Source: Candidatus Aminicenantes bacterium (lineage in GTDB: Bacteria > Acidobacteriota > Aminicenantia > Aminicenantales > JAFGBC01). From it: a stretch of DNA of 64,000 nt. The number at the start of each line of letters is the position of its first letter. Positions within the stretch are counted from its first letter, which is position 1. The translations under genes and the position numbers were made by a program. The notes below the pieces were generated by a model. The model was not told where the DNA came from and did no database searches. It was given only the letters and a program-made list of their open reading frames with translations. Of this stretch, positions 11,954-52,311 are shown one piece after another. The stretch spans positions 1,504,001-1,568,000 of the forward strand of contig OY969696.1 of the NCBI GenBank assembly GCA_963702005.1. Direction: 5' to 3'.

Positions 11954-11957
11954 TAAT

Positions 11958-13094: not shown

Positions 13095-13175
13095 ATCTCC
13101 ATAATAAGGGACGGTGAAAAATTATCCTTGACTTCTGGAAACGATTCGGATAATTTTTGGACTGAGGGGATTAAG

Positions 13176-13874: not shown

Positions 13875-13907
13875 GCCCGAACCCCAATTCGGCTTGTCAG
13901 AACGAAG

Positions 13908-20750: not shown

Positions 20751-21356
20751 CGAAAGCTTTACAGGCTGCCCCGTGGCTTGCCACGGGGTGGAATGTATGC
20801 CTTGCCGAGGGGGTGATCAGGGGGACCGGAAAGTCCCCCTGATCCACAAAGGCCCTTGCTCGGGAATATGGTAGAGTATATGGGTGACGCTGAAACGGAC
20901 GAGTCATTCGGTCTACGACACGTCCTACCATCTGGTCTGGTGTCCGAAGTACCGGAAGAAGATATTCGAGCGGGTGGAAGTCCGGGAACGAGCGAAACAG
21001 ATCGTGGGAGAGATTTGCGAATCGTACGATATTGAAATCATCGAGATGGAAATTACCGAAGATCATATTCATTTGCTAGTATCATTTCCGCCATCGCGAT
21101 CGATCGGGGAGGTCGTCAGGATCATAAAGAGCATGAGTGGGAGGGGGTTGTTTCGCGAGTTTGCGGGCTTGAAAAAGAAGCTATGGGGCGGGGAAGTGTG
21201 GGAGGACGGATATTTCGCAAGGACGGTCGGAGACCGGATGACGAGGGATGTGATCGCGAAGTACATCGTCAGTCACCGAGAACTGGAGCAAGGGCCTGCG
21301 CAGCTGGCCTTGAAGCTGCGCTCCTAATGCCCCGCGGCTTGCCGCGGGGATCTTTA
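20751..21356 (+). mobile_element. IS200/IS605-family element (tnpA only), ~606 bp
   Basis: Near-identical subterminal hairpins CCCCGTGGC-TT-GCCACGGGG (20769-20788) and CCCCGCGGC-TT-GCCGCGGGG (21330-21349); ends ambiguous by 1-2 nt. Confidence 0.88.
20884..21327 (+). CDS. tnpA: IS200 HUH (Y1) transposase
   Basis: YHLVWCPKYR, EDHIHLL, WEDGYF, KYI. Confidence 0.92.
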   Translation: MTLKRTSHSVYDTSYHLVWCPKYRKKIFERVEVRERAKQIVGEICESYDIEIIEMEITEDHIHLLVSFPPSRSIGEVVRIIKSMSGRGLFREFAGLKKKLWGGEVWEDGYFARTVGDRMTRDVIAKYIVSHRELEQGPAQLALKLRS

Positions 21357-23212: not shown

Positions 23213-23722
23213 TTAGCGTCGAATGTCAGAATAAAGCCTCCAATTTTCGATTAGAAGTTTCATTCTCTTGGGCTTAGGGATTCCCTTGAACACCATCAGC
23301 CCTTGTGTCCCGGCTGATTCGATTATCAAATCTCCGTAACCCAGGATTCGCCCAAGAATTCCATAGCTGCAGACAATATCTTCGATATCCTTAAGATGAA
23401 TAGACATATATCGCTTTCCGATAATTGCTCTTTCCTTAATAAGTCTATAATTCGTCAGATAGAGTCGATTGAATTTCCAATCCAGATAAAAGATGAGGCT
23501 TATAAAAAATAGGACGAATGAGGCTGCAGCATAGCAGTAGTTTTTCAACGCACCAGCGATAAATCCTAAAATCGGGCAAGCGAAGAAATAGTACAGGAAG
23601 AAAAATAAGAAGATTTGACTCATGGAAACAAGAAGGAACAGCCAATGGGGATTGGATTGGAAAACGATCTGTTCATTCGGTAAAAGAAATTTATTTGATT
23701 TAGAAAGATAATTGTTGACCAT
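23213..23722 (-). CDS. Bacterial PH (bPH_2) domain membrane protein
   Basis: 2 TMs followed by YLTNYRLI..GRILGYGDLIIESAG. Confidence 0.75.
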   Translation of the reverse strand: MVNNYLSKSNKFLLPNEQIVFQSNPHWLFLLVSMSQIFLFFFLYYFFACPILGFIAGALKNYCYAAASFVLFFISLIFYLDWKFNRLYLTNYRLIKERAIIGKRYMSIHLKDIEDIVCSYGILGRILGYGDLIIESAGTQGLMVFKGIPKPKRMKLLIENWRLYSDIRR

Positions 23723-25019
23723 GAAAATTATCGGAATGATACGGCTGAGAAGCGAATTGTCGTTCTATAACGCCTCTCGGCTTTGTATATTTCTTTCTTG
23801 AAAAATCGATTATTTCCTCTTTATGAGAAGTATTGATTTCTCTGAGCCGTATGGTAACGGCGCTGAATGGCCGCGAAGTCACGCCGTCAATCATGAGCTT
23901 GAGGCAGATATGGAAATTGGGGAGGTTAATTAAGTCGGCTTCTTCAAATACGGGCTCAAATTCCTGAGCAAGATATTTTGCATCCTCAGCCCCGATTCTG
24001 AAGGATATGATCGTCCCGACATTCCCGAAGATCGCCGCCCTTATTTTTTCGTCCAATTGCTCGATATACTGATGGGCGAGAATAAGGTTCAAGCCGTACT
24101 TCCGGGATTCGGACATAATATCGGCAAAGGAGAGGGTTATGAAGCTGTGGATTTCGTCCACATAAAGATAGAACGGCGTTCTTTTCTCTTCCAGTAAATC
24201 TGCCCGGCTCAGCGCGGCTAACTGGATTTTGGTAAGAACCAGAGCGCCCAAAAGAGAGCAGTTGTCTTCACCGATCTTTCCTTTGGCGAGATTGACGATG
24301 AGAATCTTTCCTTCATCCATGGCTCTGCGGACATCGAAGGTATTTTCTTTCTGGCCGACTATGTTTCTAAGCGGAATGCTGACCAGGAATTGGCCGATTT
24401 TATTGAGTACGGGCGAAATCGCTTCTGACCGCAGCCAGGCGGAATATTTCTCAAACTCTGAGAGCCAGAATTCTCTGACCTGGGGATGGGTGATGTAATT
24501 GAGGACATTCCTTCTGAAATCCTTATCCAAGAGAAGCTTGGGCATGTCGAGAAGCGTACTATTTGGATATTCGAGAAGCGTGAGCAGGGCGTGCCGGAGA
24601 ATATGTTCCAATCTCGGCCCCCAGGATTCAGACCAAATCTTTTTGAAAGTCGAGATGATTCCCGAAGCCACAAGATGATGAAAATCTTTGGGGACTTTTT
24701 CCAGAGGATTAAATGCTATCGGATATTCAAGATCAGCGGGATTGAAGTAGATGACATCCTTAATTCTTTTTTTAGGAACGTAGTCCAATATTTCTTCCGC
24801 TATATCGCCGTGAGGATCGATAAGAGCTAAGCCACAGCCGTGCTTGATATCAGAGATCGCCATGTTCTCCATTAAGCTTGATTTTCCAGTGCCGGTCTTG
24901 CCGATGATATACATATGGCCTCTACGGTTTTTCTCTTTGATGCCGAAGATTCTTTTAATATCCCTGTAGTCGGTCACGGCAAAGGGGGTGATGCGATTGT
25001 TCTTATGAGAATCAGTCAT
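23700..25019 (-). CDS. TraD/TrwB-like (type IV coupling / HerA-FtsK) ATPase
   Basis: HMYIIGKTGTGKS, IDPHGD, WGPRLE, LYVDE, ESRKYGL..AHQY. Confidence 0.85.
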   Translation of the reverse strand: MTDSHKNNRITPFAVTDYRDIKRIFGIKEKNRRGHMYIIGKTGTGKSSLMENMAISDIKHGCGLALIDPHGDIAEEILDYVPKKRIKDVIYFNPADLEYPIAFNPLEKVPKDFHHLVASGIISTFKKIWSESWGPRLEHILRHALLTLLEYPNSTLLDMPKLLLDKDFRRNVLNYITHPQVREFWLSEFEKYSAWLRSEAISPVLNKIGQFLVSIPLRNIVGQKENTFDVRRAMDEGKILIVNLAKGKIGEDNCSLLGALVLTKIQLAALSRADLLEEKRTPFYLYVDEIHSFITLSFADIMSESRKYGLNLILAHQYIEQLDEKIRAAIFGNVGTIISFRIGAEDAKYLAQEFEPVFEEADLINLPNFHICLKLMIDGVTSRPFSAVTIRLREINTSHKEEIIDFSRKKYTKPRGVIERQFASQPYHSDNFHGQQLSF

Positions 25020-25534: not shown

Positions 25535-26282
25535 CTCTCAGATCAATCTTTATCTGCTTTGCGGTCTGAAGTACAAATTCCAGTACATTGACGAGATCCC
25601 GAAACGCTTCAAATCTTCAGGATTGGCTTTTGGCAGCGCTATCCATTCGGCTCTTTCCTGGTATCACAAGCAGACGATGAACGGAAACGGAGTGACGATT
25701 GACCGGTTGCACAAGATTTTCGACGCTGACTGGTACAGCCTGAAAACGGAAAACGAGATTCGCTTCAAAGAAGGGGAAGAAGAGATGAAGCTCGTCGTCC
25801 TGGGAAAAGAGATGCTGGCTCAGTATTTTGATCTGCCGAGAAAAAAAATCAAAGGTACGGAGATTCCGTTTTCTGTCCCGCTTATCAATCCTGAAAACAG
25901 CAAGTGCGCAGCCATCGAGCTTGAAGGCGTGATCGATTTGATCGAGGAGGACGACACCATCACGGAATTCAAGACTTCGGCCCAGACCATGGACTCTCAG
26001 GAGCTTGGAAACCACGTCCAGCTGACAATCTACAGCTACGCTTTCGAAAGGATCAGCCACAAGCCGCCCAAGTCCTTAAAAATCGTCAACTTCGTCAAAT
26101 CCAAGAAGCCGAAGATGATTCAGATGGACACGAATCGAGACAACGACGACTATCAGCGGCTCTACTTCCTGGCCGGACAGATCCTCAAAGGAATTCAGCA
26201 GCGCATCTTTTTCCCGAGAACCGGATTCCTTTGCAAAGACTGCGAGTACGCGGAGAACTGCAAAATGTGGAAGGGGAACTAG
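25515..26282 (+). CDS. PD-(D/E)XK nuclease, RecB/Cas4-like
   Basis: LSSSQINLY.LC, GSAIH, GVIDLI..EFKT, QLTIY, CKDCEY..C. Confidence 0.85.
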   Translation: MTPYLSSSQINLYLLCGLKYKFQYIDEIPKRFKSSGLAFGSAIHSALSWYHKQTMNGNGVTIDRLHKIFDADWYSLKTENEIRFKEGEEEMKLVVLGKEMLAQYFDLPRKKIKGTEIPFSVPLINPENSKCAAIELEGVIDLIEEDDTITEFKTSAQTMDSQELGNHVQLTIYSYAFERISHKPPKSLKIVNFVKSKKPKMIQMDTNRDNDDYQRLYFLAGQILKGIQQRIFFPRTGFLCKDCEYAENCKMWKGN

Positions 26283-26303
26283 CTCATTTTCTTCCAACAA
26301 AGC

Positions 26304-26335
26304 AAGGAAGCAGGCAATCCTGCTTCCTTTTAATA
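26304..26335 (+). terminator. Intrinsic terminator
   Basis: AAGGAAGCAGG-CAAT-CCTGCTTCCTT followed by T/A-rich tail. Confidence 0.7.
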
Positions 26336-26406
26336 TTTTACAGGGTTTTCTAAATGTGCTAACATTTAAAAAAAGGGTTGATTATTAATTTTGGGCATTA
26401 ATAAAC

Positions 26407-29298
26407 ATGGCACAAGAAATGCTCTTCCCAGAAGGATCAAAATGGAGAAAATGGGACCTTCATATTCATAGTCCACTTTCTATACTTAATAATAAATATC
26501 CAAAATCTGCCAGTGGCAAGCCGGACTGGGGAGGCTTCATAGATAAACTAGAACGCTCGGACCTAGCTGTAATTGGAATTACAGACTATTTTTCTATCGA
26601 AGGCTATAAAAAGGTACTGGATCTTAAGAATAATGAGAAGAGATTATCGAACATATTCACCGTGCTTCCGAATATTGAATTTAGACTCAACAGTGTATTG
26701 TCTAGTAAAAAAAACGGGAGACATCCTCGAAGATTAAACTTCCATGTGATTTTTTCAGATGAGGTCTCTTGCCGAGACATCGAGGAGCATTTTTTACACG
26801 ATCTTCTTTTTTATTATGAAGGGAACCCTCAAGATAAAGACGAGAGACGAAAATTGAAATTATCTAATCTTAGGGAATTGGGGGCGAAACTCATATCTCA
26901 ACATAGCGGATTTGAAGGAAAGGATGCGCTTGAAGTTGGCGCAACGTGTGCAGTGGTCAACCATGAAGATATAACGGAAATTCTGAGTGGGGATAGCAGA
27001 TTTAAAGGGAAGTACATAATAGTTTTTCCTGAAGACCTATTCAGCCTGATAGATTGGGATGGACAGGATCACCATATAAGAAAAGGGGTGCTTCAGAAAT
27101 CGGATATGGTTTTTTCTTCTTCTCAAAAAACGATTCAGTGGTGCCTTGGGAAACCACCTTATCAGGAAGGCGAAAAGAAGTTTATTGAGGAGTTTAAGAC
27201 CCTGAAACCATGTGTTCACGGCTCTGACGCGCATCAAATTGAGGAAATTGCGGCTCCTTGTGCAAAAAGAGGAGAGCCGGATCATAAATGCGGAGAGTCT
27301 TCTTCAAAGTGCGAGATGAGGTACTGCTGGATCAAAGCTGATCCGATATTTGAGGGATTGAGACAGTTGCTTTATGAACCAGAAGAAAGAGTTAAGATTC
27401 AAGAAGATGACCCCACGCCTTCAAGAAGCAATATAACGCTGTCAAAAATCACCGTGCCGGGATCAGAAATTAATGAAGAGCTATCAATAGCTAAAACGGA
27501 AATAGATCTAAATATAGGCTTAGTGGCTGTTGCAGGAGGAAAGGGCACTGGGAAAACAGCCTTTGTTGATTTGATTGCGAATTGCTTTCAAGATCGCGTT
27601 AATACAGACGACAAGAACTCATTTGTGAAAAGAATAGTTGACCAAAAGCCTGATCTGGATGTTGAACTAGACTTTAAAAATAATATAATTTTCAAGAAAA
27701 AGATTAGGGATGATTCTTATTTCCAGGAGGGAGAGATATTATATATTGCCCAGGGCGAGCTCGAGCATTACATCGGAGAAGGATCTGATCTAGACAAGTA
27801 TGTAAATAATTTAATATTTCTTAATCCTAAGATCATAAATTCACTACAAAAATACGAATACTCGAAGATGGAAGCCGATCTCAAGGAAATAGAAGCGAAG
27901 ATACAAAAGAAGTCTGAGTCAATAGAGCGGCTAGAACAAGAAACTGTAAGTGCTGTTCTACGAGACGCCGAAATAAAAGAAAAACAGCTTCAGAATTCCC
28001 TGAGAGATATAAATCAGCGATTAGCTGAATTAGAAAAAAAGCTTAGTATCGATAAGGTAAAAATCGCCAAAGAAAAACAGGGAAGAATGGCTGAGTTAAA
28101 AACGAAAAAGGAATTATATGTTGGATTGAAAGAACAAATTGGATTAGCGATTAGTTTTTTTGATGAAGAATTAGTTGGATTAAATACGATAATAAGAAGG
28201 ATAAATAACATCCTCGAATCATTGGGGATCCCCGAAAAATATCCTGAGATTAATTATGCTGATCGCAGCAAATTGATAGAGCGGTCAAACCAAACCGATG
28301 GAATAGTTACGAAAATTATTGGAGAAATCGAAGTAATTCAAAAAGAGATAAACAAGTATGAGATTGGCATTCAAGATCATGCATCTCTGCTCAACAAGAA
28401 GAAAGACATAGAAACCTCAATAGAGAAAAGCAATACGAGGCTAAAGAACCTTGCTTTTAAGAAGACAAAGTTGTCTGAAGATATATTACAGAGAAAGAAC
28501 CTCTTCAAGGATATGATCATTGCAGTAGTGGCTCTAAAAACTAAATATGCAGAAGTTATAAAATTATTTTCCTCTCAAAAAGCCATAGTACTCTCCGATA
28601 TTGAATTCATCGCCGAGATGACGTTTGACGCTGAAGGTGTCTTGAAAAACGCAGAGGATGTATTAGATAACAGAAAGGTGATTGTCTACCCTGAAGGAGA
28701 TGGTTGGGTTTTTAAAAGAATGATAGAAATATATGGTCAAATAACGGCCGGAGATACAACAAAGGCTGACGAATTGGTTGAGGAAGTTGAGCGTCTAAAT
28801 AATGAATTGAAACCTAAAATTAAATCCTCAAGTGCAGTCAATGTGGGAGATTTCTATAAATTCTTATATACGAATTATTTAAATGTTCTTCCTGTCGTTA
28901 AGTATAAAAATACCAGGATCAATAAATTGTCGCTTGGACAAAAGGCGACAGTGCTTATAAAAATATATTTAGCTGAAGGAGATAATCCAATTATTATAGA
29001 TTCACATGATGAACACCTGGATAATGCGTATATCATGGAAGAATTAACAGGGTCGATTAGAGAAGCTAAAAAATATAGACAAGTGATCATGGTTTCAAAC
29101 AATGGCAACATAGTGGTAAATAGTGATGCGGAACAATTGATAATAGCGGAGCGGAATGATGAAGGAGAAATATCTTATATAGCTGGGTCAATCGAGAATC
29201 CTACCATACGAGAGAAAGCGATAAAAGTCTTAGAAGGCGGGCCGGAGGCATTTAAGAAACGACAGCAAAAGTATCGTATCTCTGGCTCAGCATTCTAA
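26407..29298 (+). CDS. PHP-domain + ABC/SMC-like ATPase (TrlF/Ppl-like, putative anti-phage)
   Basis: WDLHIHSP, ITDY, GSDAH, WIKADPIFEGL, GGKGTGKT, coiled coil, LSLGQ, LEGGPEAF. Confidence 0.8.
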   Translation: MAQEMLFPEGSKWRKWDLHIHSPLSILNNKYPKSASGKPDWGGFIDKLERSDLAVIGITDYFSIEGYKKVLDLKNNEKRLSNIFTVLPNIEFRLNSVLSSKKNGRHPRRLNFHVIFSDEVSCRDIEEHFLHDLLFYYEGNPQDKDERRKLKLSNLRELGAKLISQHSGFEGKDALEVGATCAVVNHEDITEILSGDSRFKGKYIIVFPEDLFSLIDWDGQDHHIRKGVLQKSDMVFSSSQKTIQWCLGKPPYQEGEKKFIEEFKTLKPCVHGSDAHQIEEIAAPCAKRGEPDHKCGESSSKCEMRYCWIKADPIFEGLRQLLYEPEERVKIQEDDPTPSRSNITLSKITVPGSEINEELSIAKTEIDLNIGLVAVAGGKGTGKTAFVDLIANCFQDRVNTDDKNSFVKRIVDQKPDLDVELDFKNNIIFKKKIRDDSYFQEGEILYIAQGELEHYIGEGSDLDKYVNNLIFLNPKIINSLQKYEYSKMEADLKEIEAKIQKKSESIERLEQETVSAVLRDAEIKEKQLQNSLRDINQRLAELEKKLSIDKVKIAKEKQGRMAELKTKKELYVGLKEQIGLAISFFDEELVGLNTIIRRINNILESLGIPEKYPEINYADRSKLIERSNQTDGIVTKIIGEIEVIQKEINKYEIGIQDHASLLNKKKDIETSIEKSNTRLKNLAFKKTKLSEDILQRKNLFKDMIIAVVALKTKYAEVIKLFSSQKAIVLSDIEFIAEMTFDAEGVLKNAEDVLDNRKVIVYPEGDGWVFKRMIEIYGQITAGDTTKADELVEEVERLNNELKPKIKSSSAVNVGDFYKFLYTNYLNVLPVVKYKNTRINKLSLGQKATVLIKIYLAEGDNPIIIDSHDEHLDNAYIMEELTGSIREAKKYRQVIMVSNNGNIVVNSDAEQLIIAERNDEGEISYIAGSIENPTIREKAIKVLEGGPEAFKKRQQKYRISGSAF

Positions 29299-29417
29299 AT
29301 CTAAATTTGTCTTTGAAATCATCATCGGCAACTCATCTTGCGACTCAAATATGATCTATCTATGGCTGTATTCCGGGTCTTTGGCCTTCGATGTGAAAAC
29401 TTTCTCAGCATTGTCGG

Positions 29418-29990
29418 TCATAACAGGTCAAACAACAAGCTTGGTGCGATATCTGCTCCTTCTCCAAAATACGGGCATAGCTCACATTCGGGACATGTCG
29501 ACATATCTCTATCTTTACTTCCGCAAGATGTAGCAATTCTTTTCTTTATCTCTAGAGCCCTCAGATTCCTTAGGCCTTGGAATTCCTTGAATTTACGATA
29601 ACCTTTTGCTGCACGGCGATACCATTTCACGAAATCTTCGACGTCGATGTGGATAATAGTCTGGGGTAACTTTTTCTTAATATCCCTTGGCGGCTTGAAG
29701 GGGCTCAGAACGACCAAAACATTTGCGCCCCTAAAACGCGGGTCTTTATGATGTCCATGCTTTATATATAATTCACAGGTTTTTTCAACTTCTACGATAA
29801 CCTCCATGCCTTCAAATACCGCTTTGAAGTCTGGCCCAAATTTAAAAGGTCCCTTAATCTTAGAAAAACCTAATTTTTTATAATTCTCTCTAACATATTC
29901 ATTAATCCAATATTCCCTAATGCCACCTTTCTCAGCACGTTCGTGTGCAGTTGGCTTTGTAGGTTGACTCGCAGCTTTTTCTTGCTTCAT
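29418..29990 (-). CDS. Hypothetical protein, possible PD-(D/E)XK nuclease with Cys cluster
   Basis: GPDF....IVEVEK; C-terminal CPECELCPY. Confidence 0.5.
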   Translation of the reverse strand: MKQEKAASQPTKPTAHERAEKGGIREYWINEYVRENYKKLGFSKIKGPFKFGPDFKAVFEGMEVIVEVEKTCELYIKHGHHKDPRFRGANVLVVLSPFKPPRDIKKKLPQTIIHIDVEDFVKWYRRAAKGYRKFKEFQGLRNLRALEIKKRIATSCGSKDRDMSTCPECELCPYFGEGADIAPSLLFDLL

Positions 29991-30161
29991 GCAGCACCCT
30001 TAACTGATTTTCTCTCCATTGCTTCGCCATTGTCAATTCCTTTACTGAGTCTTTCTATGTGCTAGATTAAAAGTATACCAACCAGTCAATCCTTATCAAT
30101 TGATAAATTCTTGGCTCAAATCTATTATTGACTCCGGCTTTCAGTTGATACATCCAGCGCT

Positions 30162-30275
30162 ATGAACTGTCTCCTCTACGCCCGTGTCTCCACGGACAAA
30201 CATGTTCAAAAAGACCTATCTATCCTGCCCCCGATCGATATGAGGGAACACTTTGCTGAAGAGTCCGGCCTTTAA
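30162..30275 (+). pseudogene. N-terminal fragment of a third serine recombinase
   Basis: MNCLLYARVSTDKHVQKDLSI.. then stop after 37 aa. Confidence 0.65.
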
Positions 30276-30322
30276 TCACCTCTTCAAATTCGGGATCATA
30301 GCCTCTTTATTAGTCTCGAAAA

Positions 30323-30380
30323 AGGTTCTAACGTCCTCTACTGCGGTGTACTAAAATTGCCGAAATAGGCAAAAATTCCC
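30323..30380. repeat. att-like repeat C (LSR2 cassette junction)
   Basis: AGGTTCTAACGTCCTCTACTGCGGTGTAC (25/29 to 35076-35104), then TAAAATTGCCGAAA-N4-CAAAAAT-CCC. Confidence 0.8.
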
Positions 30381-30511
30381 TTCTTGTGTGAAGCATTATT
30401 TTAAATGAGTTAAAATGCGAGAATCACGCTACAACAGATAGATATTGGGAGGGCGGTAGTTTCCCCGTTTCCCCCTTTACTTTGTATTTATTTGTTATAT
30501 AATCAAAATAT

Positions 30512-31039
30512 ATGAGCCGATTAGAACAATTTCTATTATTTGTCCTAGACAGAGCTCATAGGATCGGAATTAAAGACCTATCCCGTTTTCAGTTATTCAA
30601 GATATCCTATATTATTCAGGTACTGTCTTTAAAATACGCTGGTAAAGAATTTATCCCGAATTTAGTATTCGTTAGGCATAAACATGGACCGATATCTACG
30701 GATATATATCATGCGATAGATGATTTATATAAGAAAAAATATATTAGTAGAGAAATTAGTAAGAAAGAAGACTATGAATTTGCCCGTCATGGCCATAAAT
30801 TAATCAAGAAAATCCCCAGATTGAACTTTAGTAAAGGGGAAACTGTTTTTTTGGATAATTTTCTGTCGGAGTTATTGCCGTTATCTCAAAATAAGTTGAA
30901 ACAATACGCTTACACAACCGAACCGATGAAAGAAATCTTGAAAAAGGAAAAAGGCGAGATTAAGACAGGAGTAGTTATTGATTTTTCAACCGTTATTGTT
31001 GATCCAGATGTCGTAAATAGCTATGCTGACGAATTATGA
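30512..31039 (+). CDS. Panacea/SocA (DUF4065)-like antitoxin
   Basis: QLFKISY..FVRHKHGPIS..AYTTEPM. Confidence 0.65.
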   Translation: MSRLEQFLLFVLDRAHRIGIKDLSRFQLFKISYIIQVLSLKYAGKEFIPNLVFVRHKHGPISTDIYHAIDDLYKKKYISREISKKEDYEFARHGHKLIKKIPRLNFSKGETVFLDNFLSELLPLSQNKLKQYAYTTEPMKEILKKEKGEIKTGVVIDFSTVIVDPDVVNSYADEL

Positions 31040-31461
31040 GTTTTTCTGTCGGCGACATTCCCTTTTTTAAAGAATACCAGTTTACTGATACTGGACGATT
31101 CGCCCCTCATTTTGGGCTAGTACTTCTACCAGAAACCGCGACTAAATATCAGAATAGTCTTTTGTGTTGTGTAATTACCTCACGTGAACCTAAAAGAATC
31201 AAATGGAGTTTATTGTTGGAATGTTCCAAATATAGTTGTTTTTCGAAAAATAGTCATGCTTGTTTCGATAGAAAGGACCTCGTTTCTAAGAGCGGCCTCG
31301 GAGATAATCCTCAACCTAAAGCGCGACTGTGCGTGGATGATCTTAAGAGAGCTTATAAAATATTAAGAAGCTCTCTTTTTGTCATAAGAGATATTGCGAA
31401 TGATCCTTATATGCGAGGCGTAATTATTTATGAGTGGAAGAAGGCACTGGGGAAAAACTAG
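31036..31461 (+). CDS. Putative toxin, PemK/MazF-like fold
   Basis: VGDIPFF.EYQFTD....PH.GLVL..CCVITS; ATGA-coupled to the antitoxin. Confidence 0.5.
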   Translation: MSFSVGDIPFFKEYQFTDTGRFAPHFGLVLLPETATKYQNSLLCCVITSREPKRIKWSLLLECSKYSCFSKNSHACFDRKDLVSKSGLGDNPQPKARLCVDDLKRAYKILRSSLFVIRDIANDPYMRGVIIYEWKKALGKN

Positions 31462-31514
31462 TTGAATTTTGTCCCAGGATTACGCATCGGACTCTCTAAC
31501 GTTTGATTTGAAAT

Positions 31515-31571
31515 AAGTTCTAACGTCCTCCACGGTGGTGTACAAAATTGCCGAAACAATCAAAAATACCC
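31515..31571. repeat. att-like repeat B (LSR2 cassette junction)
   Basis: AAGTTCTAACGTCCTCCACGGTGGTGTAC identical to 35076-35104, then AAAATTGCCGAAA-N4-CAAAAAT-CCC. Confidence 0.85.
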
Positions 31572-31747
31572 GCCTTGCTACGGAGAGTAGGTTTTTATAA
31601 TTAATAAGTAAGATTAAGAAAATCGTTTGTGCTTAATTATAAGAAATAGGGTGTGGATAAATAACCTCTTGACAATATAAGTTACATAAGATATCATTCC
31701 CAATATGGGAACATATGCTAATGTAATATATTGTTCCACGGTAAGAA

Positions 31748-32035
31748 ATGAAACTAATAGGAAAATCAATATTAGACGAATTCAAACAAAAGCATGCCGA
31801 TGCTCGACCACAAATTGATTCTTGGGAAGCAGAAGTTAAGGAAGCAGAATGGAAAACCCCGCAGGATCTCAAAAACAGGTATCCCAAGGCTAGTATTTTA
31901 AGTAAGCAGCGTGTTGTTTTTAATATTTATGGAAATAAATATAGATTGCTAGCACTAGTCACCTATAAGACAGGAGTAGTATTGGTAATTAAAATAGGAA
32001 CGCACAAAGAATACGATAATTGGGTAATAGATTAA
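31748..32035 (+). CDS. higB: HigB-family toxin
   Basis: W..P.DLK.RYP.AS..RVVFNI.GNKYRL..IGTHKEYD. Confidence 0.9.
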   Translation: MKLIGKSILDEFKQKHADARPQIDSWEAEVKEAEWKTPQDLKNRYPKASILSKQRVVFNIYGNKYRLLALVTYKTGVVLVIKIGTHKEYDNWVID

Positions 32036-32051
32036 GATTAGGCAAAAAACT

Positions 32052-33266
32052 ATGAGCAAAATCAAAGTTATTAAAACAAAAAAAGACTACGAAGATGCAC
32101 TCAAATTAGTCGAAGTGCTAATGAGTCATGATCCCGACCCAGATTCAGAAGAAGGGGAACAGCTCAGTCTTCTCAGCACGCTTATTGAAGATTACGAAAC
32201 TAAGGTATTTCCAGAGACATTACCTAATCCTATTGATGCGATCAAATACAGAATGGAACAAATTGGGCTTAAACCAGCCGACCTCATACCATACATTGGC
32301 AGCCGAAGCAGAGTATCAGAAATTCTTTCAGGCAAACGTCAGCTAACTCTTGAGATGGTAAGAGCGCTAGAAGCTGGTCTTGGAATTCCCGCAAAAGTGT
32401 TAATTAAGAAACAGGAGCTGGACGAGAATCTCGATTATCAGAATTGGGACAATCGTTTACTAGCAGAATTGGAAGCACGTGGTTATTTCGGCAGCTATTC
32501 CATAAAGAAATATAATAAAGATGAACTTCTTAAAAACTTCTTTGCGCCAATCGGATCTCCTGCGCAGCTCGTCGGGATGCTACGAAAATCTAACTACAGA
32601 TCTTCGCCACTTACTGATAAGCGCGCGTTAAGCGCTTGGGCCGCTTGCGTGCTTAGAAAAGCGAATAAAATAAGAGTATCTGAGAAATACAGACATGGGT
32701 TCGTAAATTCCACGTTTATGCAGGAATTAGCAAAATTAAGTGTAAAAGGTAACGGACCAGTTCTAGCTCAGGAATTATTGAAAAAAGGGGGAATCAAATT
32801 GGTGATTGAACCTCACTTCCCCAAAACATACCTAGATGGAGCAACAATTCTTATCAACAAAGATAATCCGGTTATCGGATTAACCTTAAGATATGATCGA
32901 TTGGATAACTTTTGGTTCACAATGATGCATGAATTAGCGCACATAGCCTTGCATTATGACAGTGGCATTAATCTTTTTTATGATGAGATTGAGGGGATAA
33001 AAACGATCGATATAGATGAGAGAGAACGAGAAGCTGACGCATTAGCTGAAGAAACTCTTTTACCAAAGGCAAAATGGGAGATCAGCCCAGCCAGATTAAT
33101 TCCTTCTTTTATGGCAGCAAACAGTTTGGCCAATGAGCTTGGAGTACATGTAGCCATCATCGCCGGCCAAATCAGGCATAAAGGCAATAAATATATCTAC
33201 CTAAACAAAATTGTAAATGGGGCAAAAATTAGAAAATATTTTCCTCATGAAAAATGGAATAAATAA
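32052..33266 (+). CDS. higA: HigA antitoxin fused to ImmA/IrrE metallopeptidase
   Basis: PIDAIKYRMEQ..GSRSRVSEILSGKR; DRLDNFWFTMMHELAH; EREAD. Confidence 0.88.
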   Translation: MSKIKVIKTKKDYEDALKLVEVLMSHDPDPDSEEGEQLSLLSTLIEDYETKVFPETLPNPIDAIKYRMEQIGLKPADLIPYIGSRSRVSEILSGKRQLTLEMVRALEAGLGIPAKVLIKKQELDENLDYQNWDNRLLAELEARGYFGSYSIKKYNKDELLKNFFAPIGSPAQLVGMLRKSNYRSSPLTDKRALSAWAACVLRKANKIRVSEKYRHGFVNSTFMQELAKLSVKGNGPVLAQELLKKGGIKLVIEPHFPKTYLDGATILINKDNPVIGLTLRYDRLDNFWFTMMHELAHIALHYDSGINLFYDEIEGIKTIDIDEREREADALAEETLLPKAKWEISPARLIPSFMAANSLANELGVHVAIIAGQIRHKGNKYIYLNKIVNGAKIRKYFPHEKWNK

Positions 33267-33267
33267 T

Positions 33268-34347
33268 ATGTTTGATTCAAAACATTACGTGCCAATATTA
33301 AAATGGAAACGCGCCGAGCAAGGCGCGCTAAAGGAATTGGAAGAAAAACATAAAAGGATTATAACTCCTTTAATTCAATTCGTAATGCCGAAAAACAAGC
33401 CAGAAGACAAGCTTGAAGATGTTATTGCAAGATTTGATGGTCAATTAGCCGAAATACCAGGAAAAATAATTGATATCTGGGGCAAGTCCCCGATCTTTAT
33501 TGGTGTTAATTTGTTATATTCTACATCCCTGAAAGAAAAAGCTCTCGATGTTATTTCACATGGAGGGCATAAGCTCGGAGGTATTTTTATTCCCGTTATA
33601 CATCTTAATGATGACGAGAAGATTAAGAAATCAGCATTGAATGTCGCAAAAGAGACTGGGAGCGGCTTATGTGTAAGATTAATATGTTCTGATTTTTCCG
33701 ATATAACGAAATTAGATCACGATATTGGTAGCCTTCTTTCATTCGGATTAAACGAAAACGATATCGATCTATTAATTGATATCAAAGAAACCGAAAAAGA
33801 TGAGGAAAAATACGCTAAATATTTCAATTTGAGTCAAAAGGTTCCCAATCTAATGAAGTGGCGAACATTAATATTTGCCAGCGGATCATTTCCCGAAGAT
33901 TTATCTGAGTGTAAAGTTGATGAAGAAAATCTTATACCACGCAACGACTGGAAAAGTTGGAAAGAATGTATTGGTAAAAAGTTGCAAAGAAAACCAACCT
34001 TCTCGGACTACACTATTCAGCATCCTATTTACAAAGAAGCTGTCCAATTTTATCACCCGACTTCAAGCATTAAATATACATTAAAAAATGAATGGCTGAT
34101 TATGAAAGGTCAAAGGCAAAGATTTGAACAATATTTGGCACATGCAGCTGAGCTGGTAAAGGATAAAAGATATTGTGGGGAAGATTTTAGTAATGGTGAT
34201 AAATATATAGCCGAAAAGGCAAAACATTTTTATGTATATACAAAGAATCCCGCCATCAAGGGTACGGGAAGCACAGAAACTTGGCTTAAAGCTGGCCTTA
34301 GCCACCATTTAGTATTAGTGGCGCATCAGGTCTCCACTCTGGCCTGA
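33268..34347 (+). CDS. Beta-family protein (T4 beta-like)
   Basis: YVPILKWKRAE, ASGSFP, FSDYTIQHP, IKYT..W, SHHL. Confidence 0.75.
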   Translation: MFDSKHYVPILKWKRAEQGALKELEEKHKRIITPLIQFVMPKNKPEDKLEDVIARFDGQLAEIPGKIIDIWGKSPIFIGVNLLYSTSLKEKALDVISHGGHKLGGIFIPVIHLNDDEKIKKSALNVAKETGSGLCVRLICSDFSDITKLDHDIGSLLSFGLNENDIDLLIDIKETEKDEEKYAKYFNLSQKVPNLMKWRTLIFASGSFPEDLSECKVDEENLIPRNDWKSWKECIGKKLQRKPTFSDYTIQHPIYKEAVQFYHPTSSIKYTLKNEWLIMKGQRQRFEQYLAHAAELVKDKRYCGEDFSNGDKYIAEKAKHFYVYTKNPAIKGTGSTETWLKAGLSHHLVLVAHQVSTLA

Positions 34348-34924
34348 AAAATATTTTATCTCTTACTTTTTTTCCAAGAGTTTCTTTGTCAAAATAAATG
34401 GATAATTTTTCATAAATACAGTCTCTAGGCTTTGAATAGAGACCGATGGCTTTACCAGCCTCTTCTAAGATCTTCAATGCCTCTTCTCTCCACAAGAGCC
34501 TGGCAATAGAAATTCCATCCTGTTCTTTATTATTTTCTCCCTCTCGGATGAGATTAAAGATTACTGAGCCGTTAAGATCAATCTTGGCAACCGTGATACC
34601 CCACCAATCAGGCACCATGTTTATTGCATTATATAGATGACTTTTTCCGACTACCAAAGTGACCTTGTCGAACACAGCATTAAAAATATTCATCTGTTCT
34701 GGTAATCGTTGTAATGTATCTTGATCGCTCTTTATTTCATAACCGTGCATCATTCCATTAACAACAGCAATATCAATTCTTGAAGTGCCATGGTTGACAC
34801 CCAATTCTTCAATTATTCGTAATTTCTTATCTTGGGCGTGACGCTTTTTTAAATCCTCCATTAAGGCGGATCGTATAATCAAATCGGTTGTTGGAAGATT
34901 CTTCTTCGAATTGTTTTTCTTCAT
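34298..34924 (-). CDS. sce7726-family PD-(D/E)XK-like protein
   Basis: RIDIAVVNG..HGYEIKSDQDTLQRLPEQ..FDKVTLVVG..PDWWGI. Confidence 0.8.
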   Translation of the reverse strand: MKKNNSKKNLPTTDLIIRSALMEDLKKRHAQDKKLRIIEELGVNHGTSRIDIAVVNGMMHGYEIKSDQDTLQRLPEQMNIFNAVFDKVTLVVGKSHLYNAINMVPDWWGITVAKIDLNGSVIFNLIREGENNKEQDGISIARLLWREEALKILEEAGKAIGLYSKPRDCIYEKLSIYFDKETLGKKVRDKIFFRPEWRPDAPLILNGG

Positions 34925-35034
34925 AATTTATGTTTCTTTTTTTAAGTATAACATAAGATAAGACAGAACAACATATAGGATGACATGACCGACATGGCTT
35001 TATATCTTGTTGGAAATAATATCTTTTGTTAGAA

Positions 35035-36648
35035 TTAAACAAACACTTCTTCCGATTGGGGCAGTTTTTCATAAAAAGTTCTAACGTCCTCCACGGTGGT
35101 GTACCAGGAAAGAAATTGGGAAGTGGAGAGGTCCGATTTAGCTTCAAAAATGGCGTTTTTCGGAGATTCGAGCGTATTGTTTCTCCTTCGGACTACCATT
35201 AAGCCTTTTTCGATAATTTGGAGCGGTTTTTCAAGCCGAATTTCGAGTTCTTTATCTTTCAGAAAAAGGTTCGAGCCGAGTTCTTGGAGGATCGTCCGTT
35301 TGTCTTCCAAGGAGCCGTTTTGGAAGTTCTTTTTAGCCCGCGCTGCGAAAATGAAGGTTTCCGCAGTAAGATCGAGCGAGCGTTTTATCGGGTCCTCCAT
35401 TAAGCTTCTTTCTAGCCGGGCTCTTTCTTCTGCGAGCCGTTTCTTCTCTTCGACATATTCTTCGTCGTTGATTAAATCCTTGAGCCTCATCTGGTTCAGA
35501 TTAGCGAGTCGCTTCTCGCAATCGGCAAGGGCTTTCTCCAATGATCGCCGAACATTGTTTTCTTTTTGATGTCCATCCTTTTCTTCTTCGCGCAAATACT
35601 CGAAAGCTAAATCGAGAAGCGTTTGGGGAACGTGGACATTTTCCAGATATGCGGCGACCTGGCTTTCGAGGACTTTCAATTCGATATATTTCTGATGACA
35701 ACGCGGCCCGTGTTTCTTTTTTGTACAATGATAATAAGTGTAGTGATAGCCGTATCTATTGATTTTCTCCTCTGCTGTAATCATACAACCACACTCAGCG
35801 CATCTGATCAGGCCGGTAAATGCGAATTCATGGGTCTTCGGCCTTGGCCTTCCGCGCCGCCCGAGAATGTCTTGAGCTTTCCAGAATTCATCTTCGGTAA
35901 TCATAGGCTCGTGCTTTCCCGGATATGTGCCTTCTTTTCTCTCCATAAGGCCGTAGTAAAAAGGATTTCCGAAGATTTCATAAATTCCGCTCATACTCAA
36001 CGGCTTGCCGCCGATTTTATTCCCTTGTCTTGTCCTAAAGCCCCATTTATTGTTTGCGATATCGAGTATCTTGGAAGGCGAAACTCCTTTTAAAAGAAGC
36101 TCCCACATTCTGCGGACGATGGGGAAACGCTTCGGATCTATGACAATCGTTCTTTCTTTCGGCTCATTGAGATAGCCTAAAGGCGGGAGAGAAGGAAGCC
36201 AGCCCCTTTCGAGTTTCGCCCGAAGTCCTCTTTTCACGTTATCGCTCAGGTCGTCCACATACTTTTTCGCCATACCGAATTCGATTTGCATTAGGAATTT
36301 ATCGTTGCTGTTGTTCTTAAAGCTTCCATGCGGCGTTTGAATATCGGATATCTTGCCTTGATCCAGAGCCCAGACCAGGGCCGCGCCATCTATCGGATTT
36401 CGGGCTAAGCGATCAAGCTTCCAGCAGACGATCCCTTTGTATTGGCCCTTATAGAGTTTTTTCATCATATCGTTAAAGATCGGCCTGCCGGGAGATTTGG
36501 CAGATTTAGACTCAGTAAGAATATCGGAGATCGGAAGGCTCATTCTTTTGCCGAACTCCTCCAATTCCTTGATTTGGGAGTCGATTGATAAGACCTGTTT
36601 TTCTTCTGATTCCGTAGATTTACGACAGTAGAGAACATATTGGGACAT
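35035..36648 (-). CDS. Large serine recombinase LSR2
   Basis: YCRKSTESEEKQ, WKLDRLARN, PLGY, HEPMIT, GLIRCAECG, YYHCT; ends WYTTVEDVRTF. Confidence 0.93.
   Translation of the reverse strand: MSQYVLYCRKSTESEEKQVLSIDSQIKELEEFGKRMSLPISDILTESKSAKSPGRPIFNDMMKKLYKGQYKGIVCWKLDRLARNPIDGAALVWALDQGKISDIQTPHGSFKNNSNDKFLMQIEFGMAKKYVDDLSDNVKRGLRAKLERGWLPSLPPLGYLNEPKERTIVIDPKRFPIVRRMWELLLKGVSPSKILDIANNKWGFRTRQGNKIGGKPLSMSGIYEIFGNPFYYGLMERKEGTYPGKHEPMITEDEFWKAQDILGRRGRPRPKTHEFAFTGLIRCAECGCMITAEEKINRYGYHYTYYHCTKKKHGPRCHQKYIELKVLESQVAAYLENVHVPQTLLDLAFEYLREEEKDGHQKENNVRRSLEKALADCEKRLANLNQMRLKDLINDEEYVEEKKRLAEERARLERSLMEDPIKRSLDLTAETFIFAARAKKNFQNGSLEDKRTILQELGSNLFLKDKELEIRLEKPLQIIEKGLMVVRRRNNTLESPKNAIFEAKSDLSTSQFLSWYTTVEDVRTFYEKLPQSEEVFV
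35076..35104. repeat. att-like repeat A inside the LSR2 3' end
   Basis: Encodes YTTVEDVRT; similarity to copies B and C stops exactly at the palindrome GTAC. Confidence 0.85.
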
Positions 36649-36712: not shown

Positions 36713-36934
36713 TTATTCTTTCAGCTTATCATCTTTTAAATGATCGTCAAATAAACGAGGCCCGGACAAAGCGTTTGCCCGGCTGCTAGTCGAAGGTTCT
36801 TTAAGAATCACCCTCAATAGATTAACCAGCCTAAGAAATTTCTCGTAGGCCTGGCTGTCGGATATTGTCTCGTTAAACTCATCCTGATAGATTTTCTTGA
36901 ATTCTTCGATTGTTTCCTTGCTTGGACTCATCAA
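36713..36934 (-). CDS. Small protein upstream of LSR2
   Basis: SKETIEEFKKIYQDEFNETISDSQAYE; co-oriented with the recombinase. Confidence 0.65.
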   Translation of the reverse strand: MMSPSKETIEEFKKIYQDEFNETISDSQAYEKFLRLVNLLRVILKEPSTSSRANALSGPRLFDDHLKDDKLKE

Positions 36935-39228: not shown

Positions 39229-39825
39229 ATGCGGAATAATATGTCAAATTTTAAATGTGGATCGTTCACGAGCTCATCTAGAATTGTCCCTTATCTGTTG
39301 TCGGATGAGGTTCAGAAGCTGGCCGCAGAAGCAGGAAAAAGGCGGAATGGAGAACGAGATTGTCTGTTTATTTTGCTTTTATATCAAACAGGGTTAAGGA
39401 TATCTGAGGCTTTATCTTTAACTCCAGCTAAAATTGATCAGTTCGATGGAAAGCCGGTCCTAAACATTATTGGGAAAGGCAACAAACCCCGCCTTGTCTC
39501 CTGCCCGCAAAATCTGGCAGGAAGAATGGCCGCCTATGGAAAGAAAATGGATCTGAATGCCCATGACAGATTCTTCCCCTTTAACAGAATACGCGGTTGG
39601 CAGATAATCAAGACGGCTGCGGAAAACGCGGGATTTCAAAAGAGAATTTTTCCGCATCTTCTAAGACATTCGGACGCAATTGAAAGATTGAGGCAGACGG
39701 GAAATCCCAAGGCCCTTCAGCACCACCTGGGCCACTCCTCGATTTCCATGGTGATGAGATATCTTTCAACTTTAACCCAGGAGGAGTCGTTGAGGATTCA
39801 GCAGAAAGTGGAATTTAAGAAATAG
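39229..39825 (+). CDS. Tyrosine recombinase, catalytic domain only
   Basis: TGLRISEAL, GKGNKPR, HLLRHS, HLGHSS...RY. Confidence 0.88.
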   Translation: MRNNMSNFKCGSFTSSSRIVPYLLSDEVQKLAAEAGKRRNGERDCLFILLLYQTGLRISEALSLTPAKIDQFDGKPVLNIIGKGNKPRLVSCPQNLAGRMAAYGKKMDLNAHDRFFPFNRIRGWQIIKTAAENAGFQKRIFPHLLRHSDAIERLRQTGNPKALQHHLGHSSISMVMRYLSTLTQEESLRIQQKVEFKK

Positions 39826-50120: not shown

Positions 50121-52311
50121 ATGGGTCTATTCAAAAGAAAGGGAATACAGCTTTTTGAAGAACCTGAAGAATCCGCCCTGCCCGAGCAGAAAGTCGAAAA
50201 CAAACCCGTTGAAGAAGAATCCATAACTCAGACCGAAGTTAAGCCCGATAAGGAACCAGAAAAAACTCTTGATCTCGGCTGGTATTATTCCGATAACAAA
50301 GAAGAATTTCAGATTGCGAAAATCGCGGAAAAAGACCGAGCCACGCATTTATACGTTGTCGGAGCTACGGGAACGGGCAAGACGAAATTTCTCGAATACC
50401 TGATTAGCCAGGATATCGAGAAAGGAAACGGCTTCGGGGTCATTGATCCGCATGGCGATTTAATCGAAGACGTTAAAGGCTTTTTGATCCTGCAATACAA
50501 TCCGGACGATCCGGAGATAACGGACAAGGTTATTCTTATCGATCCGACAGATCCGATTTTCACCGTGACATTCAATCCTTTGGAGAAAATGCTTGGCGTC
50601 CCTCTTGCGGAACAGGCAAATGAACTTATCTGCGCTTTCCGAAAAATCTGGTCCGACTTCCTGGGGCGTAAGGATGGAAGACCTGATGCGGAATTCTCTG
50701 ATTGCTCTGGGAGAGGCCGGGTTGACATTAATCGAGCTTCCGGCGTTCCTGAGCGATCGGGCTGTTCGGCAGGGCGTCTTGGAGAAAATCACGCATCCTT
50801 TAGCCAGAGAGTATTTCCGAAGGTTTGATACCGTGACCGACCGGGGCCAGATCACCTGGATCGAGCCGGTAATGAATAAAATCAATGCCTTTTTCTCAGA
50901 TGAGAGAATTAGGCATATTTTTTCCTCCGCGAAAAGCTCTTTCAACCTTAGAGAGATCATGGATTCACAAAAAATCCTACTGATCAAGCTCGATAAGGGA
51001 AAATTGAAGGATTCGGCCGACCTTCTCGGCTCGCTTCTCATGGCCCAAATCCAGATGGCCGCGTTCTCAAGATCAGACGTTCCCCAGGGCAAACGAACTA
51101 CGTTTTATTTGTATATCGACGAATTCCAGAATTTTGCCAGCGAATCGTTCTCCGTAGTATTGTCCGAAGCCCGCAAGTACGGGCTTTCTTTAATCATGGC
51201 TCATCAGACGCTCGCTCAGGTTCCCGAAGAATTAAGAAGCTTGATCTTGGGGAATGCCGGAATCCAAGTCTATTTCCGGCTTAATCGCCACGATGCCTCG
51301 ATTCTCGCCAAAGAAGCTTTCGAGTATTCGGGATTCGAAGTGAAGAACGTCAGCGGGTTCAAGCCTCGATACTGGAGTCTTGGCGAAGAATGGGAGCAGC
51401 ATACTAAAGACCTTCAGACCTTAGAGCCGAGAATCTGCTATGTGAAGCATAAAGTCGAAGGCGGAGTGATTCCCGTCCAGACGGCCTATATCGAAACTGC
51501 CCAGGAGGTTTTCGTCGAATTATTAGGGCGGGCTGAAGATGAGTATCTCAAATGGTTTGGAACGATTCCTTTTGGCCGGAAATACCTCGTGGAGCGGGGA
51601 AAACTTGATGCCGAAAGCAGAGCGAGAGAAGCGGAGGTTCAAGGGAAAGCCAAGCCGTACCAGAAAGAGACGCCGTACCGAAAAGAACCAGCACCGGCAA
51701 AGCCTGTGCCGAAAGCAGAATTACCGGCCGGAGGAAGGGTAATTGACGTAGAATCCATCGTAGTTCTGCCTAAAATAGAACTCCCGCCCCCAAAGGATAA
51801 AGCCGTATCTCAGCATCGGTATCTTCAAAATCTCATTAAGAAGATAGCGGAGGATAAAGGATACAAAGCGTCTATTGAGCAAACGATTCTTAACGGCGCA
51901 GGGAAGATTGACGTAAGCTTAGAAAAAATGGGGAAGAAAATCGCTTGTGAAATATCTATTACTACAAGCGGCGATCAGGAGCTAAAGAATATCGATAAAT
52001 GCCTTTCCGCTGGATATAAACAAGTGGTTCTTTGCTCGCCCGACCAAAAGACATTAGAGAATGTGCGAACCTTGGCTTCTCAGAAGCTGGGTCAAACTGA
52101 TCTGCTAAAAGTATTATTTTTCAAGCCCGAAGATCTCTTTTATTATTTAGAAAAAGAAGCGGCAGCCGAAGCATCGAAGGAAGCGCGGGTGAAAGGATAT
52201 AAGGTCAAAGTTCAGTATCAGCCCGTTAAAGAATCCGAGAAGAAAGCCAAGCGAGAAGCCGTGGCCCAGGTCATCCTTCAGGCGATGAAGAGGATGAGGG
52301 ACAAAAAATGA
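50121..52311 (+). pseudogene. Second TraD/TrwB-like ATPase with +1 frameshift at ~50658
   Basis: GATGTGKT, IDPHGD in one frame; SWGVRME, LYIDEFQNF, EARKYGL..AHQ in the next; TGG TCC GAC T TCC TGG carries one extra T. Confidence 0.8.

Follow-up and report, generated by a model that had tools for sequence, protein, structure and literature searches.

The window analyzed here is a 64,000-nucleotide (nt) stretch of the genome of a Candidatus Aminicenantes bacterium, in which the gene of a large serine recombinase (LSR), LSR2, is followed by two gene cassettes and by copies of a repeat that overlaps its own last codons. Pfam recovered in LSR2 the domains Resolvase (2.4e-21, residues 5 to 149), Recombinase (4.8e-10), and Zn_ribbon_recom (1.6e-10). 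Among 60 homologs, the catalytic-domain motif YCRKS (Y7, C8, R9, K10, and the serine S11) is almost invariant and the zinc-ribbon cysteines C283, C286, C308, and C317 are invariant. Long coiled-coil helices occupy residues 342 to 444 (AlphaFold2 [AF2] model made with 60 homologs). Judging from its catalytic, Recombinase, zinc-ribbon, and coiled-coil features, LSR2 is a large serine integrase. The genome has no second LSR2-like gene, the other serine recombinase of the window, LSR1, being only 26% identical over 168 residues. A search of 40 relatives returned no close homolog, and the only matches, found in 2 of the 40, were 28 to 30% identical. The collection of viral contigs searched held no relative of LSR2, so that a phage origin is unsupported by that collection.

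The repeat search of the window gave a direct repeat of about 38 nt in three copies: A (35071-35108), at the end of the LSR2 gene, B (31510-31547), and C (30318-30355). Copies A and B have 28 exact bases in common, and sites A and B show no difference over 27 nt. Across the 4.31 Mb of the genome, a degenerate 25-mer matched nowhere but at A, B, and C, which share one strand; its reversed control matched nothing. Copies B and C are each accompanied by a neighboring repeat (31544-31577 and 30353-30386, 82% alike), here called the X arm, which is absent beside A. A genome search found no X arm or P' arm (the half-site on the other side of the core) besides those of B and C. It is hardly credible that these repeats are chance similarities or an assembly artifact. 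The window does lie in a block of 42% GC within a genome of 60% GC, a possible cause for doubt about the assembly, yet no match of 28 bases was expected from 100 shuffles, the same architecture is present in 11 loci of independent assemblies, and LSR2 and cassette 1 are covered by contigs from four sequencing runs.

All three copies can be read in frame on the minus strand. Copy A gives W-YTTVEDVRTFYEKLPQSEEVFV and a stop, which closes the open reading frame (ORF) of LSR2; B gives YTTVEDVRTYFKSNVRESDA and a stop; and C gives YTAVEDVRTFFETNKEAMIPNLKR, with its stop at 30276-30278. Relative to A, the four mismatches of C are ACC to GCA (a threonine-to-alanine change involving two bases) and the synonymous changes GTG to GTA and ACT to ACC. 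These translations are exactly those of an earlier sequence-only reading of this DNA, which had proposed that each junction supplies an in-frame C terminus for LSR2, and the codon comparison bears out its description of the differences in C as two synonymous changes and one T-to-A codon. The interval from GTAC to the VEDVRT stretch carries no insertion or deletion (indel) in any of the three copies, and a crossover anywhere in the common block therefore preserves the frame.

The repeats delimit two cassettes in which Pfam identified no recombinase, LSR2 lying outside them (Table 1). In cassette 1, PADLOC found the A, B, and C genes of PD-Lambda-2 all on adjacent genes (31748-34347), and the 141-amino-acid (aa) ORF of cassette 2 had no family match.

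Table 1. Coordinates of LSR2, the recombination sites, the cassettes, and adjacent features in the window
Feature	Position	Strand	Basis
LSR2, large serine recombinase, 537 aa (P0001)	35035-36648	-	Pfam, homolog alignment, AF2
Site A, attP-type (P arm, core, P' arm), over the last codons of LSR2	35066-35125	-	Repeat search, T[AC]GAAC register
Site A, W codon	35104-35106	-	Translation
Site A, VEDVRT	35077-35094	-	Translation
Tail A, FYEKLPQSEEVFV and stop, now in use, encoded by the LSR-proximal end of cassette 1	35035-35076	-	Travels with cassette 1 in a contig of run X2
X arm of site B, conserved cassette-side left arm	31544-31577	-	82% identical to X arm of C
Site B core, P' arm, and tail B, YTTVEDVRTYFKSNVRESDA and stop	31480-31543	-	Translation, identity to A
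X arm of site C	30353-30386	-	Repeat search; arm comparison across loci
Site C core, P' arm, and tail C, YTAVEDVRTFFETNKEAMIPNLKR and stop	30276-30352	-	Exact tail in use in P0005
Terminal module, tail C plus about 115 nt	30161-30351	-	blastn: L038 (91%), also L039, L089, L028
Cassette 1, complete PD-Lambda-2 and cll-like gene	31578-35034	.	PADLOC, Pfam
cll-like gene, cassette 1	34298-34924	-	PADLOC 7.5e-30
PD-Lambda-2_C/Beta protein, cassette 1	33217-34347	+	PADLOC 1.2e-40
PD-Lambda-2_B (helix-turn-helix [HTH] and M78), cassette 1	32052-33266	+	PADLOC 4.1e-141
PD-Lambda-2_A (HigB-like), cassette 1	31748-32035	+	PADLOC 1.5e-39
Cassette 2	30387-31479	.	SocA/Panacea pair
SocA/Panacea-domain protein, cassette 2	30512-31039	+	Pfam SocA_Panacea 2.7e-09
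141-aa ORF overlapping the SocA/Panacea gene, cassette 2	31036-31461	+	ORF list
73-aa ORF just upstream of LSR2, candidate accessory factor	36713-36934	-	blastn conservation
Variable DNA between array and conserved backbone	26407-29990	.	Ppl-like AAA_23 protein, 963 aa (+); 190-aa ORF (-)

The organization of the LSR2 end is common in its family. Of 7,999 candidates scored, 4,690 proteins matched at an E value of ≤0.001. The motif W-x3-V-[ED]-D-V-R-T-F was found in the last 70 residues of 101 of 121 proteins (P0001 and the best 120 of the 4,690), followed by unrelated short tails. Some of the homologs lacking it end in peptides such as ESNL or DSNQRP, the translation expected of a tRNA T-loop read as its reverse complement (by eye). 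Of the 68 loci fetched at the DNA level, 62 had a complete LSR 3' end, with the motif in 48 and other tails in 14, 11 of which carry an [ED]S[ND] signature. Of 15 loci examined with ARAGORN, 6 contain a tRNA gene convergent to the LSR. In 5 of them, this gene abuts or overlaps the LSR end (Tyr in L008, Leu in L010, Trp in L016 and L058, and Asn in L071), and in L020 a tRNA-Val gene lies 72 nt beyond the end of the match. In the tRNA-integrated members, the TGG of the W codon would be the complement of CCA, with the integrase gene running on into the tRNA. An additional copy was found upstream in the tRNA-fused loci (L008, L088/L015, and L073), as expected of an integrated element, with the exception of L028.

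The register of a conserved motif separates the intact from the tRNA-fused ends. TCGAAC stands at nt 19 to 24 after the W codon in 11 of 11 tRNA-fused junctions, whereas T[AC]GAAC stands at nt 24 to 29 in 20 of 20 intact family sites, as it does in site A. In the half-sites of serine integrases described in PMC11722253, the outer motif of attB lies 5 bp nearer the center than that of attP, and this offset is thus present in the LSR2 family. Given the 5-nt inward shift, the intact gene end can be assigned to attP, the VEDVRT stretch to its P' half, and the tRNA 3' ends to the natural attB. Likewise, the AATTT of the X arms is 5 to 6 nt closer to the core than that of the P arms (arms compared by eye), so that B and C look like attL-type hybrids, with a B-type left arm and a P' right arm, and A like a full attP. 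The window contains no tRNA or tmRNA gene; its sites are therefore not tRNA fragments. The 5-bp hairpin of the X arm is not retained in copy B (by eye). Codons 2 to 4 after the W (35095-35103 in the window) are hypervariable even among LSRs that are 86 to 92% identical, and these nine bases are usually identical between the copies of one array; their counterpart in the tRNA-integrated relatives is the acceptor stem of the target tRNA.

Arrays similar to that of the window recur behind LSR2 relatives. Among the 32 distinct motif loci whose downstream sequence spans 2 kb or more, 11 have strict distal copies of the site, one or two per locus. All of them are downstream and on the LSR strand, with none upstream or inverted in the 32. 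Three more motif loci carry weaker distal copies, and a decayed one was recognized by eye in L036. The 11 arrays all stand behind a motif-bearing LSR whose end is a full attP-type site. The X arm, caagRRgggnATTTTGCCTATTTCGGCAATTT, was found again in L006, L028, L029, L035, L039, and L089. X arms are conserved across genomes and clade specific, other clades having their own. The terminal module of the window is conserved after the last copy of other arrays and in L038 lies directly behind the LSR, which is apparently the empty state of the array. The site of the resident LSR is matched with at most one difference in 27 nt by 6 of 13 distal copies in the same array, and with none by 5 of the 13; between loci, a difference of at most one is seen in 6 of 435 pairs.

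Cassettes are 1.2 to 6 kb long and typically carry one defense or toxin-antitoxin system each. The cargo of the relatives includes a cyclase of the cyclic oligonucleotide-based antiphage signaling system (CBASS) with a two-transmembrane (2TM) effector (L039), PDC-S54 (L029), a GajB-like helicase of Gabija (L035), a LmuB-like ATPase of Lamassu (L028), a Ppl-like protein (L059), restriction-modification (L025), an Mrr-type nuclease (L097), and methyltransferases with a dCTP-deaminase-like gene (L006 and L089). The cargo with a PADLOC match is antiphage defense. In the clade closest to LSR2, the cassette genes are mostly oriented towards the LSR (ORF lists read by eye).

Some loci depart from this layout. 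X arms without a P' arm were seen at L072:1463-1520, L089:611-645, L035:13915-13955, L053:14449-14507, and L034:12223-12284; in L072, L089, and L035, the lone X arm lies about 60 to 90 nt behind an LPESE-type tail. In L072, TCTAGAAC stands after it in the attB register, so that a full attB-like site seemingly lies about 100 nt behind an intact attP. The segment L028:4290-10201 contains an LSR2-type integrase joined to a fragment that resembles a tRNA but in which ARAGORN found no full tRNA. Behind it come a serine recombinase of a different family (24% identical), a D12 adenine methylase, other genes, and then an X-core-P' site. This arrangement looks like the capture of a whole foreign element, a canonical product.

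Contigs from four sequencing runs, aligned at ≥90% likeness (the share of sampled words in the best run was 0.32), place cassette 1 in other contexts. A 3,862-nt contig of run X2 carries cassette 1 (31635-35104) with 74 differences (∼98% identity), past which the LSR of the window is replaced by TA and an X arm resembling the one of site C. Contigs of runs X1 and X6 run from the distal part of cassette 1 through the X arm and P' arm before diverging from the window at 31511. Among the contigs of the four runs, several distinct continuations begin at 35066-35071 and at 35099-35105. Cassette 1 was also found behind LSRs in L036 and L064, and in L063 it is inverted and without sites. Cassette 2 was uncovered in all four runs, which indicates only its absence from those samples. 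A joint 30386|35072 in run X8 is supported by only 34 letters on one side, and no conclusion is drawn from it.

These contigs resolve the breakpoints only to the shared block, which would also suit an origin of the arrays by homologous recombination, the X-core-P' repeats of about 70 nt serving as portable homology for RecA-type swaps after transfer, with LSR2 uninvolved. The 5 of 13 distal copies that are identical to the resident site over 27 nt are compatible with such swaps. We nevertheless regard this origin as improbable: the repeats are short and only about 80% alike beyond the 28-nt block, the sites match the half-sites of the LSR2 family, all members of which, those integrated in tRNA genes among them, have the site overlapping the integrase gene, and the copies are all co-oriented and all downstream.

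The P' copies bear a coding signature. Among 42 distinct LSR 3' ends located by protein homology, the codons of VEDVRT differ from the consensus by 62 synonymous and 18 nonsynonymous changes. By codon position, the differences number 28, 3, and 57, those at first positions being mostly AGA/CGA (the arginine codon is AGA in 25 ends, CGA in 14, and CGG in 3). The GTT codon is kept in 40 of the 42 ends, which indicates a constraint at the DNA level as well. The sequence-only reading had proposed that the site is under coding as well as binding constraint and had suggested a codon-position count on homologous ends; the count, now made, agrees with this proposal in both respects. In tail families, the nonsynonymous rate is below the synonymous one (dN < dS), with modest support, the stretches being short. 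The three 38-codon tails of L078 differ from each other at 37 to 51% of their bases and have no indel or stop.

Tails do not follow the enzymes that bear them. The homolog P0005, 86% identical to LSR2, ends in exactly tail C. Like tails were found in only 3 of the 24 pairs of LSRs whose cores are 85% or more identical, and LPESE-type tails are present on LSRs that are just 60 to 70% identical. The distal tail of L006 matches at 9 of 10 residues the tail in use in L025, and it is also that of P0010 and P0016. In these comparisons, the tails are uncoupled from the phylogeny of the enzyme, in support of the earlier suggestion that tails are swapped with cassettes. By inference, the tails may matter for the protein and, as the sequence-only reading suggested, could change the stability or activity of LSR2.

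What is shown is how the sites are built and that this layout recurs, a coding signature, tails that are uncoupled from the enzyme tree, and cassettes that are modular in other samples. These results are best explained, we think probably correctly, by the exchange of cassettes and tails between the attP-type site in the end of LSR2 and the X-core-P' sites of the cassettes. With the same degree of belief, as part of this explanation, LSR2 would belong to a large, phylum-spanning family with an attP-type site over about the last 13 codons of the integrase (S-W-x3-V-E-D-V-R-T-F). In the clade of the window, the integrase would keep an unrecombined attP in the backbone of a conjugative-looking, low-GC island of about 60 kb. 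Recombinase-less cassettes would follow this attP, each ending in a hybrid site composed of an X arm with attB-type geometry, a core, and a P' copy that repeats the last codons of the integrase in frame and adds its own short tail and stop. Recombination of the LSR site with a distal site, or with an excised X-core-P' circle, would delete, insert, or reorder cassettes, and each exchange would restore a full-length integrase with the motif and the tail of the cassette now in first place. LSR2 would then be the enzyme that moves the cassettes, its substrate would be an attP-type × attL-type pair, and the exchange would be ongoing.

Several results weigh against such an exchange. The canonical reaction of serine integrases described in PMC11722253 is attP × attB, which yields attL sites that do not react unless a directionality factor is present, so that the pairing of an attP-type with an attL-type site departs from the known reaction. 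The crossover point is not fixed: the symmetry of the arms places it near nt 10 to 11 after the W codon, and the L028 junction suggests nt 2 to 9. In the AF2 model, the predicted local distance difference test (pLDDT) score is below 50 for residues 489 to 537, leaving the motif and the tail without a confident structure. No circular cassette or deletion joint of the genome itself was seen in the sequencing runs, which contained at most 0.32 of its sampled words. For 13 of the 32 motif loci whose downstream sequence reaches 2 kb, neither searches nor inspection by eye showed a distal copy. Finally, the sequence-only reading had expected frameshifts and stops to be uncommon in the VEDVRT stretch of other copies. 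This held for 12 of 19 distal copies in relatives, which are intact and in register, and failed for 5: L006_B and L097_B are out of frame through 5 and 10 extra nt between core and P' arm, L028_C and L036_B have decayed, and L050_B has an in-frame TAG. With the two copies that are substituted without a shift (L025 and L046), 7 of 19 are broken or degraded, and many distal copies are thus not maintained. The two copies with insertions lie at L006:5885-5970 and L097:14408-14488, the 10 extra nt of the latter being a repeated CCCTA unit. The lengths of the insertions are multiples of the half-turn offset between attB-type and attP-type arms, and they may reflect chance decay or the disabling of the sites.

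The same decay would be expected if B and C were inert attL-type leftovers of canonical events, or of accreted attB-bearing DNA, and nothing moved now. The attP-type end of the LSR would then have been restored by later deletion or homologous recombination, and the in-frame tails would be relics of former LSR ends. The geometry of B and C, which in the account of PMC11722253 would not recombine canonically without a directionality factor, agrees with such scars, as does the canonical product in L028, with its LSR and tRNA-like arm, foreign element, and X-core-P' site. On the other hand, a canonical event gives the LSR a B' tail, yet all 11 arrays are headed by a full attP-type site; the X arm has been conserved between genomes and between cassettes, which would not be expected of random attB flanks; cassette 1, at about 98% identity, occurs in differing array contexts with breaks at the sites; and the distal tails have dN < dS and are indel free over 38 codons. 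Scars are the main rival to exchange by LSR2 because they explain the decayed copies and L028, and they fall short on the attP at the head of the arrays, the X arm, and the contexts of cassette 1. We consider them unlikely, though a serious contender.

If exchange by LSR2 does take place, a bolder proposal can be made. LSR2 and its array may be the serine-recombinase counterpart of an integron, in which a resident enzyme would take up, release, and rearrange single-system defense cassettes in a reversible manner. It would do so by recombination between its attP-type site and the attL-type (X-core-P') sites of the cassettes, a pairing not described for enzymes of this class, motif-bearing cassettes being selected and the motif acting as a read-out of the state of the site that tunes the enzyme. 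The VEDVRT motif is lost when relatives integrate into tRNA genes and could serve as such a read-out. Taken with all its parts together, this proposal is tentative and on balance doubtful.

Among known systems, the nearest is the array of the staphylococcal cassette chromosome (SCC) and its Ccr recombinases, with integrons as a functional analogue and Mx8 as a precedent for a change of C terminus. In SCC, the end of the anchor gene is provided by whichever att site lies closest to it. A tandem array of this type was also found here, where direct-repeat sites bound recombinase-less cassettes behind an anchor gene, which is the LSR gene itself. In SCC and SCCmec, as described in PMC11470126, the large serine recombinases CcrAB or CcrC mobilize tandem defense cassettes between direct-repeat att sites. 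The large serine recombinase, the att site at the 3' end of the anchor gene, and the tandem, recombinase-less, defense-enriched cassettes are features that the LSR2 array has in common with that description (PMC11470126). Unlike SCC, in which the anchor is rlmH and the recombinase is on a cassette, the recombinase gene is here the anchor and lies in the backbone, outside the cassettes. The latter are small (1.2 to 6 kb) with typically one defense system each, and the sites, known here from sequence alone, are attP- and attL-type and akin to those of tRNA-targeting integrases.

Like integrons (IntI, attI, and attC), the LSR2 arrays have a resident recombinase with its own site adjacent, followed by small promoter-independent cassettes that end in a site, carry toxin-antitoxin or defense cargo, and vary between relatives. 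They differ in that IntI is a tyrosine recombinase, whereas LSR2 has serine recombinase domains only; that attC sites are folded single-strand hairpins, whereas the sites here are double-strand integrase half-sites; and that integron cassettes are co-oriented behind Pc, whereas in the close clade most cassette genes converge on the LSR. Moreover, the reading frame of the recombinase itself crosses the site only in the LSR2 arrays. In phage Mx8, attP lies within int, as in LSR2, and the new 3' end reportedly changes the specificity of the integrase without inactivating it (PMC6070905). Mx8 Int is a phage tyrosine recombinase with one swap, between the free and the integrated state, and no array of alternative tails. 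Tycheposons and other tRNA-targeting islands are reported to have tandem repeat junctions and defense or adaptive cargo (10.1101/2020.12.28.424599), and the LSR2 family resembles them in integrating site specifically at tRNA genes. Those elements carry their recombinase along with them and have repeats that consist of tRNA fragments, whereas the array described here lies behind an unrecombined attP in a window without tRNA. Among the titles and abstracts of the literature searched, none described a cassette array anchored in the 3' end of the serine recombinase gene itself.

If LSR2-type enzymes shuffle cassettes, there would be at least three unrelated routes to a library of defense-gene cassettes (integrons, SCC/Ccr, and the LSR2 type), the last of which spans many uncultivated lineages, judging by record titles. 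It would also mean that a large serine integrase acts outside the attP × attB rule, which bears on the model of directionality and on landing-pad tools. The family, with its tRNA-like attB and its attP in its own gene, offers many natural pairs of enzyme and site that can be read from the sequence. The swapping of tails would give a handle on whether a recombinase senses the state of its own site, as reported for Mx8 (PMC6070905).

The array occupies a variable part of a larger element. The flanks of the backbone (up to 26331 and from 41887) are conserved by blastn in many related loci, whereas the stretch from the LSR site to the backbone is variable, so that LSR2 and its array constitute a variable spot in the backbone of a mobile element. 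From about 5.5 to 64 kb of the window (1,509,000-1,569,000 in the genome, a block of about 60 kb), the GC content is about 42%, compared with 60% for the genome. This block contains genes similar to those of type IV secretion system (T4SS) coupling proteins (23700-25019 and 50593-52311), a DUF932 gene, and genes for an HTH_36 protein and a PD-(D/E)XK nuclease and is probably an integrated conjugative or mobilizable element. On its left, the block begins with a GC break at about 5.5 kb, where the gene of LSR1 (5518-7023, minus strand), a serine recombinase unrelated to LSR2, has its 3' end. Upstream of LSR2, blastn matches around the 73-aa ORF reach 36982 in 8 close loci, and the ORF itself, a mere candidate for a directionality factor, had no Pfam or PADLOC match. 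On the other side of the array, the Ppl-like similarity of the 963-aa AAA_23 protein is limited to its C terminus (PADLOC 4.7e-23 over residues 837 to 954 only). A decayed site sought at the far end of this variable region (26250-26430 and 29280-29440) was not seen, and the region (26407-29990) may represent an older cassette that has lost its distal site.

Other genes of the island lie apart from the array. A 198-aa ORF (39229-39825), located 2.6 kb away and adjoining no site, covers no more of a tyrosine recombinase than its catalytic part (Phage_integrase, 4.7e-23) and is conserved at 72 to 76% DNA identity in at least 5 related loci. This ORF may be what is left of a longer gene, or it may encode a small backbone enzyme resembling Xer. 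An IS200/Y1-type transposase gene is found at 20884-21327 (Y1_Tnp, 5e-40). Two adjacent radical-SAM genes and a gene with a metallo-beta-lactamase fold (10490-14999) may form a small peptide-modification cluster. Elsewhere in the genome, further 100-kb bins of low GC content were found at 0.1 to 0.2 Mb and at 3.1 to 3.2 Mb.

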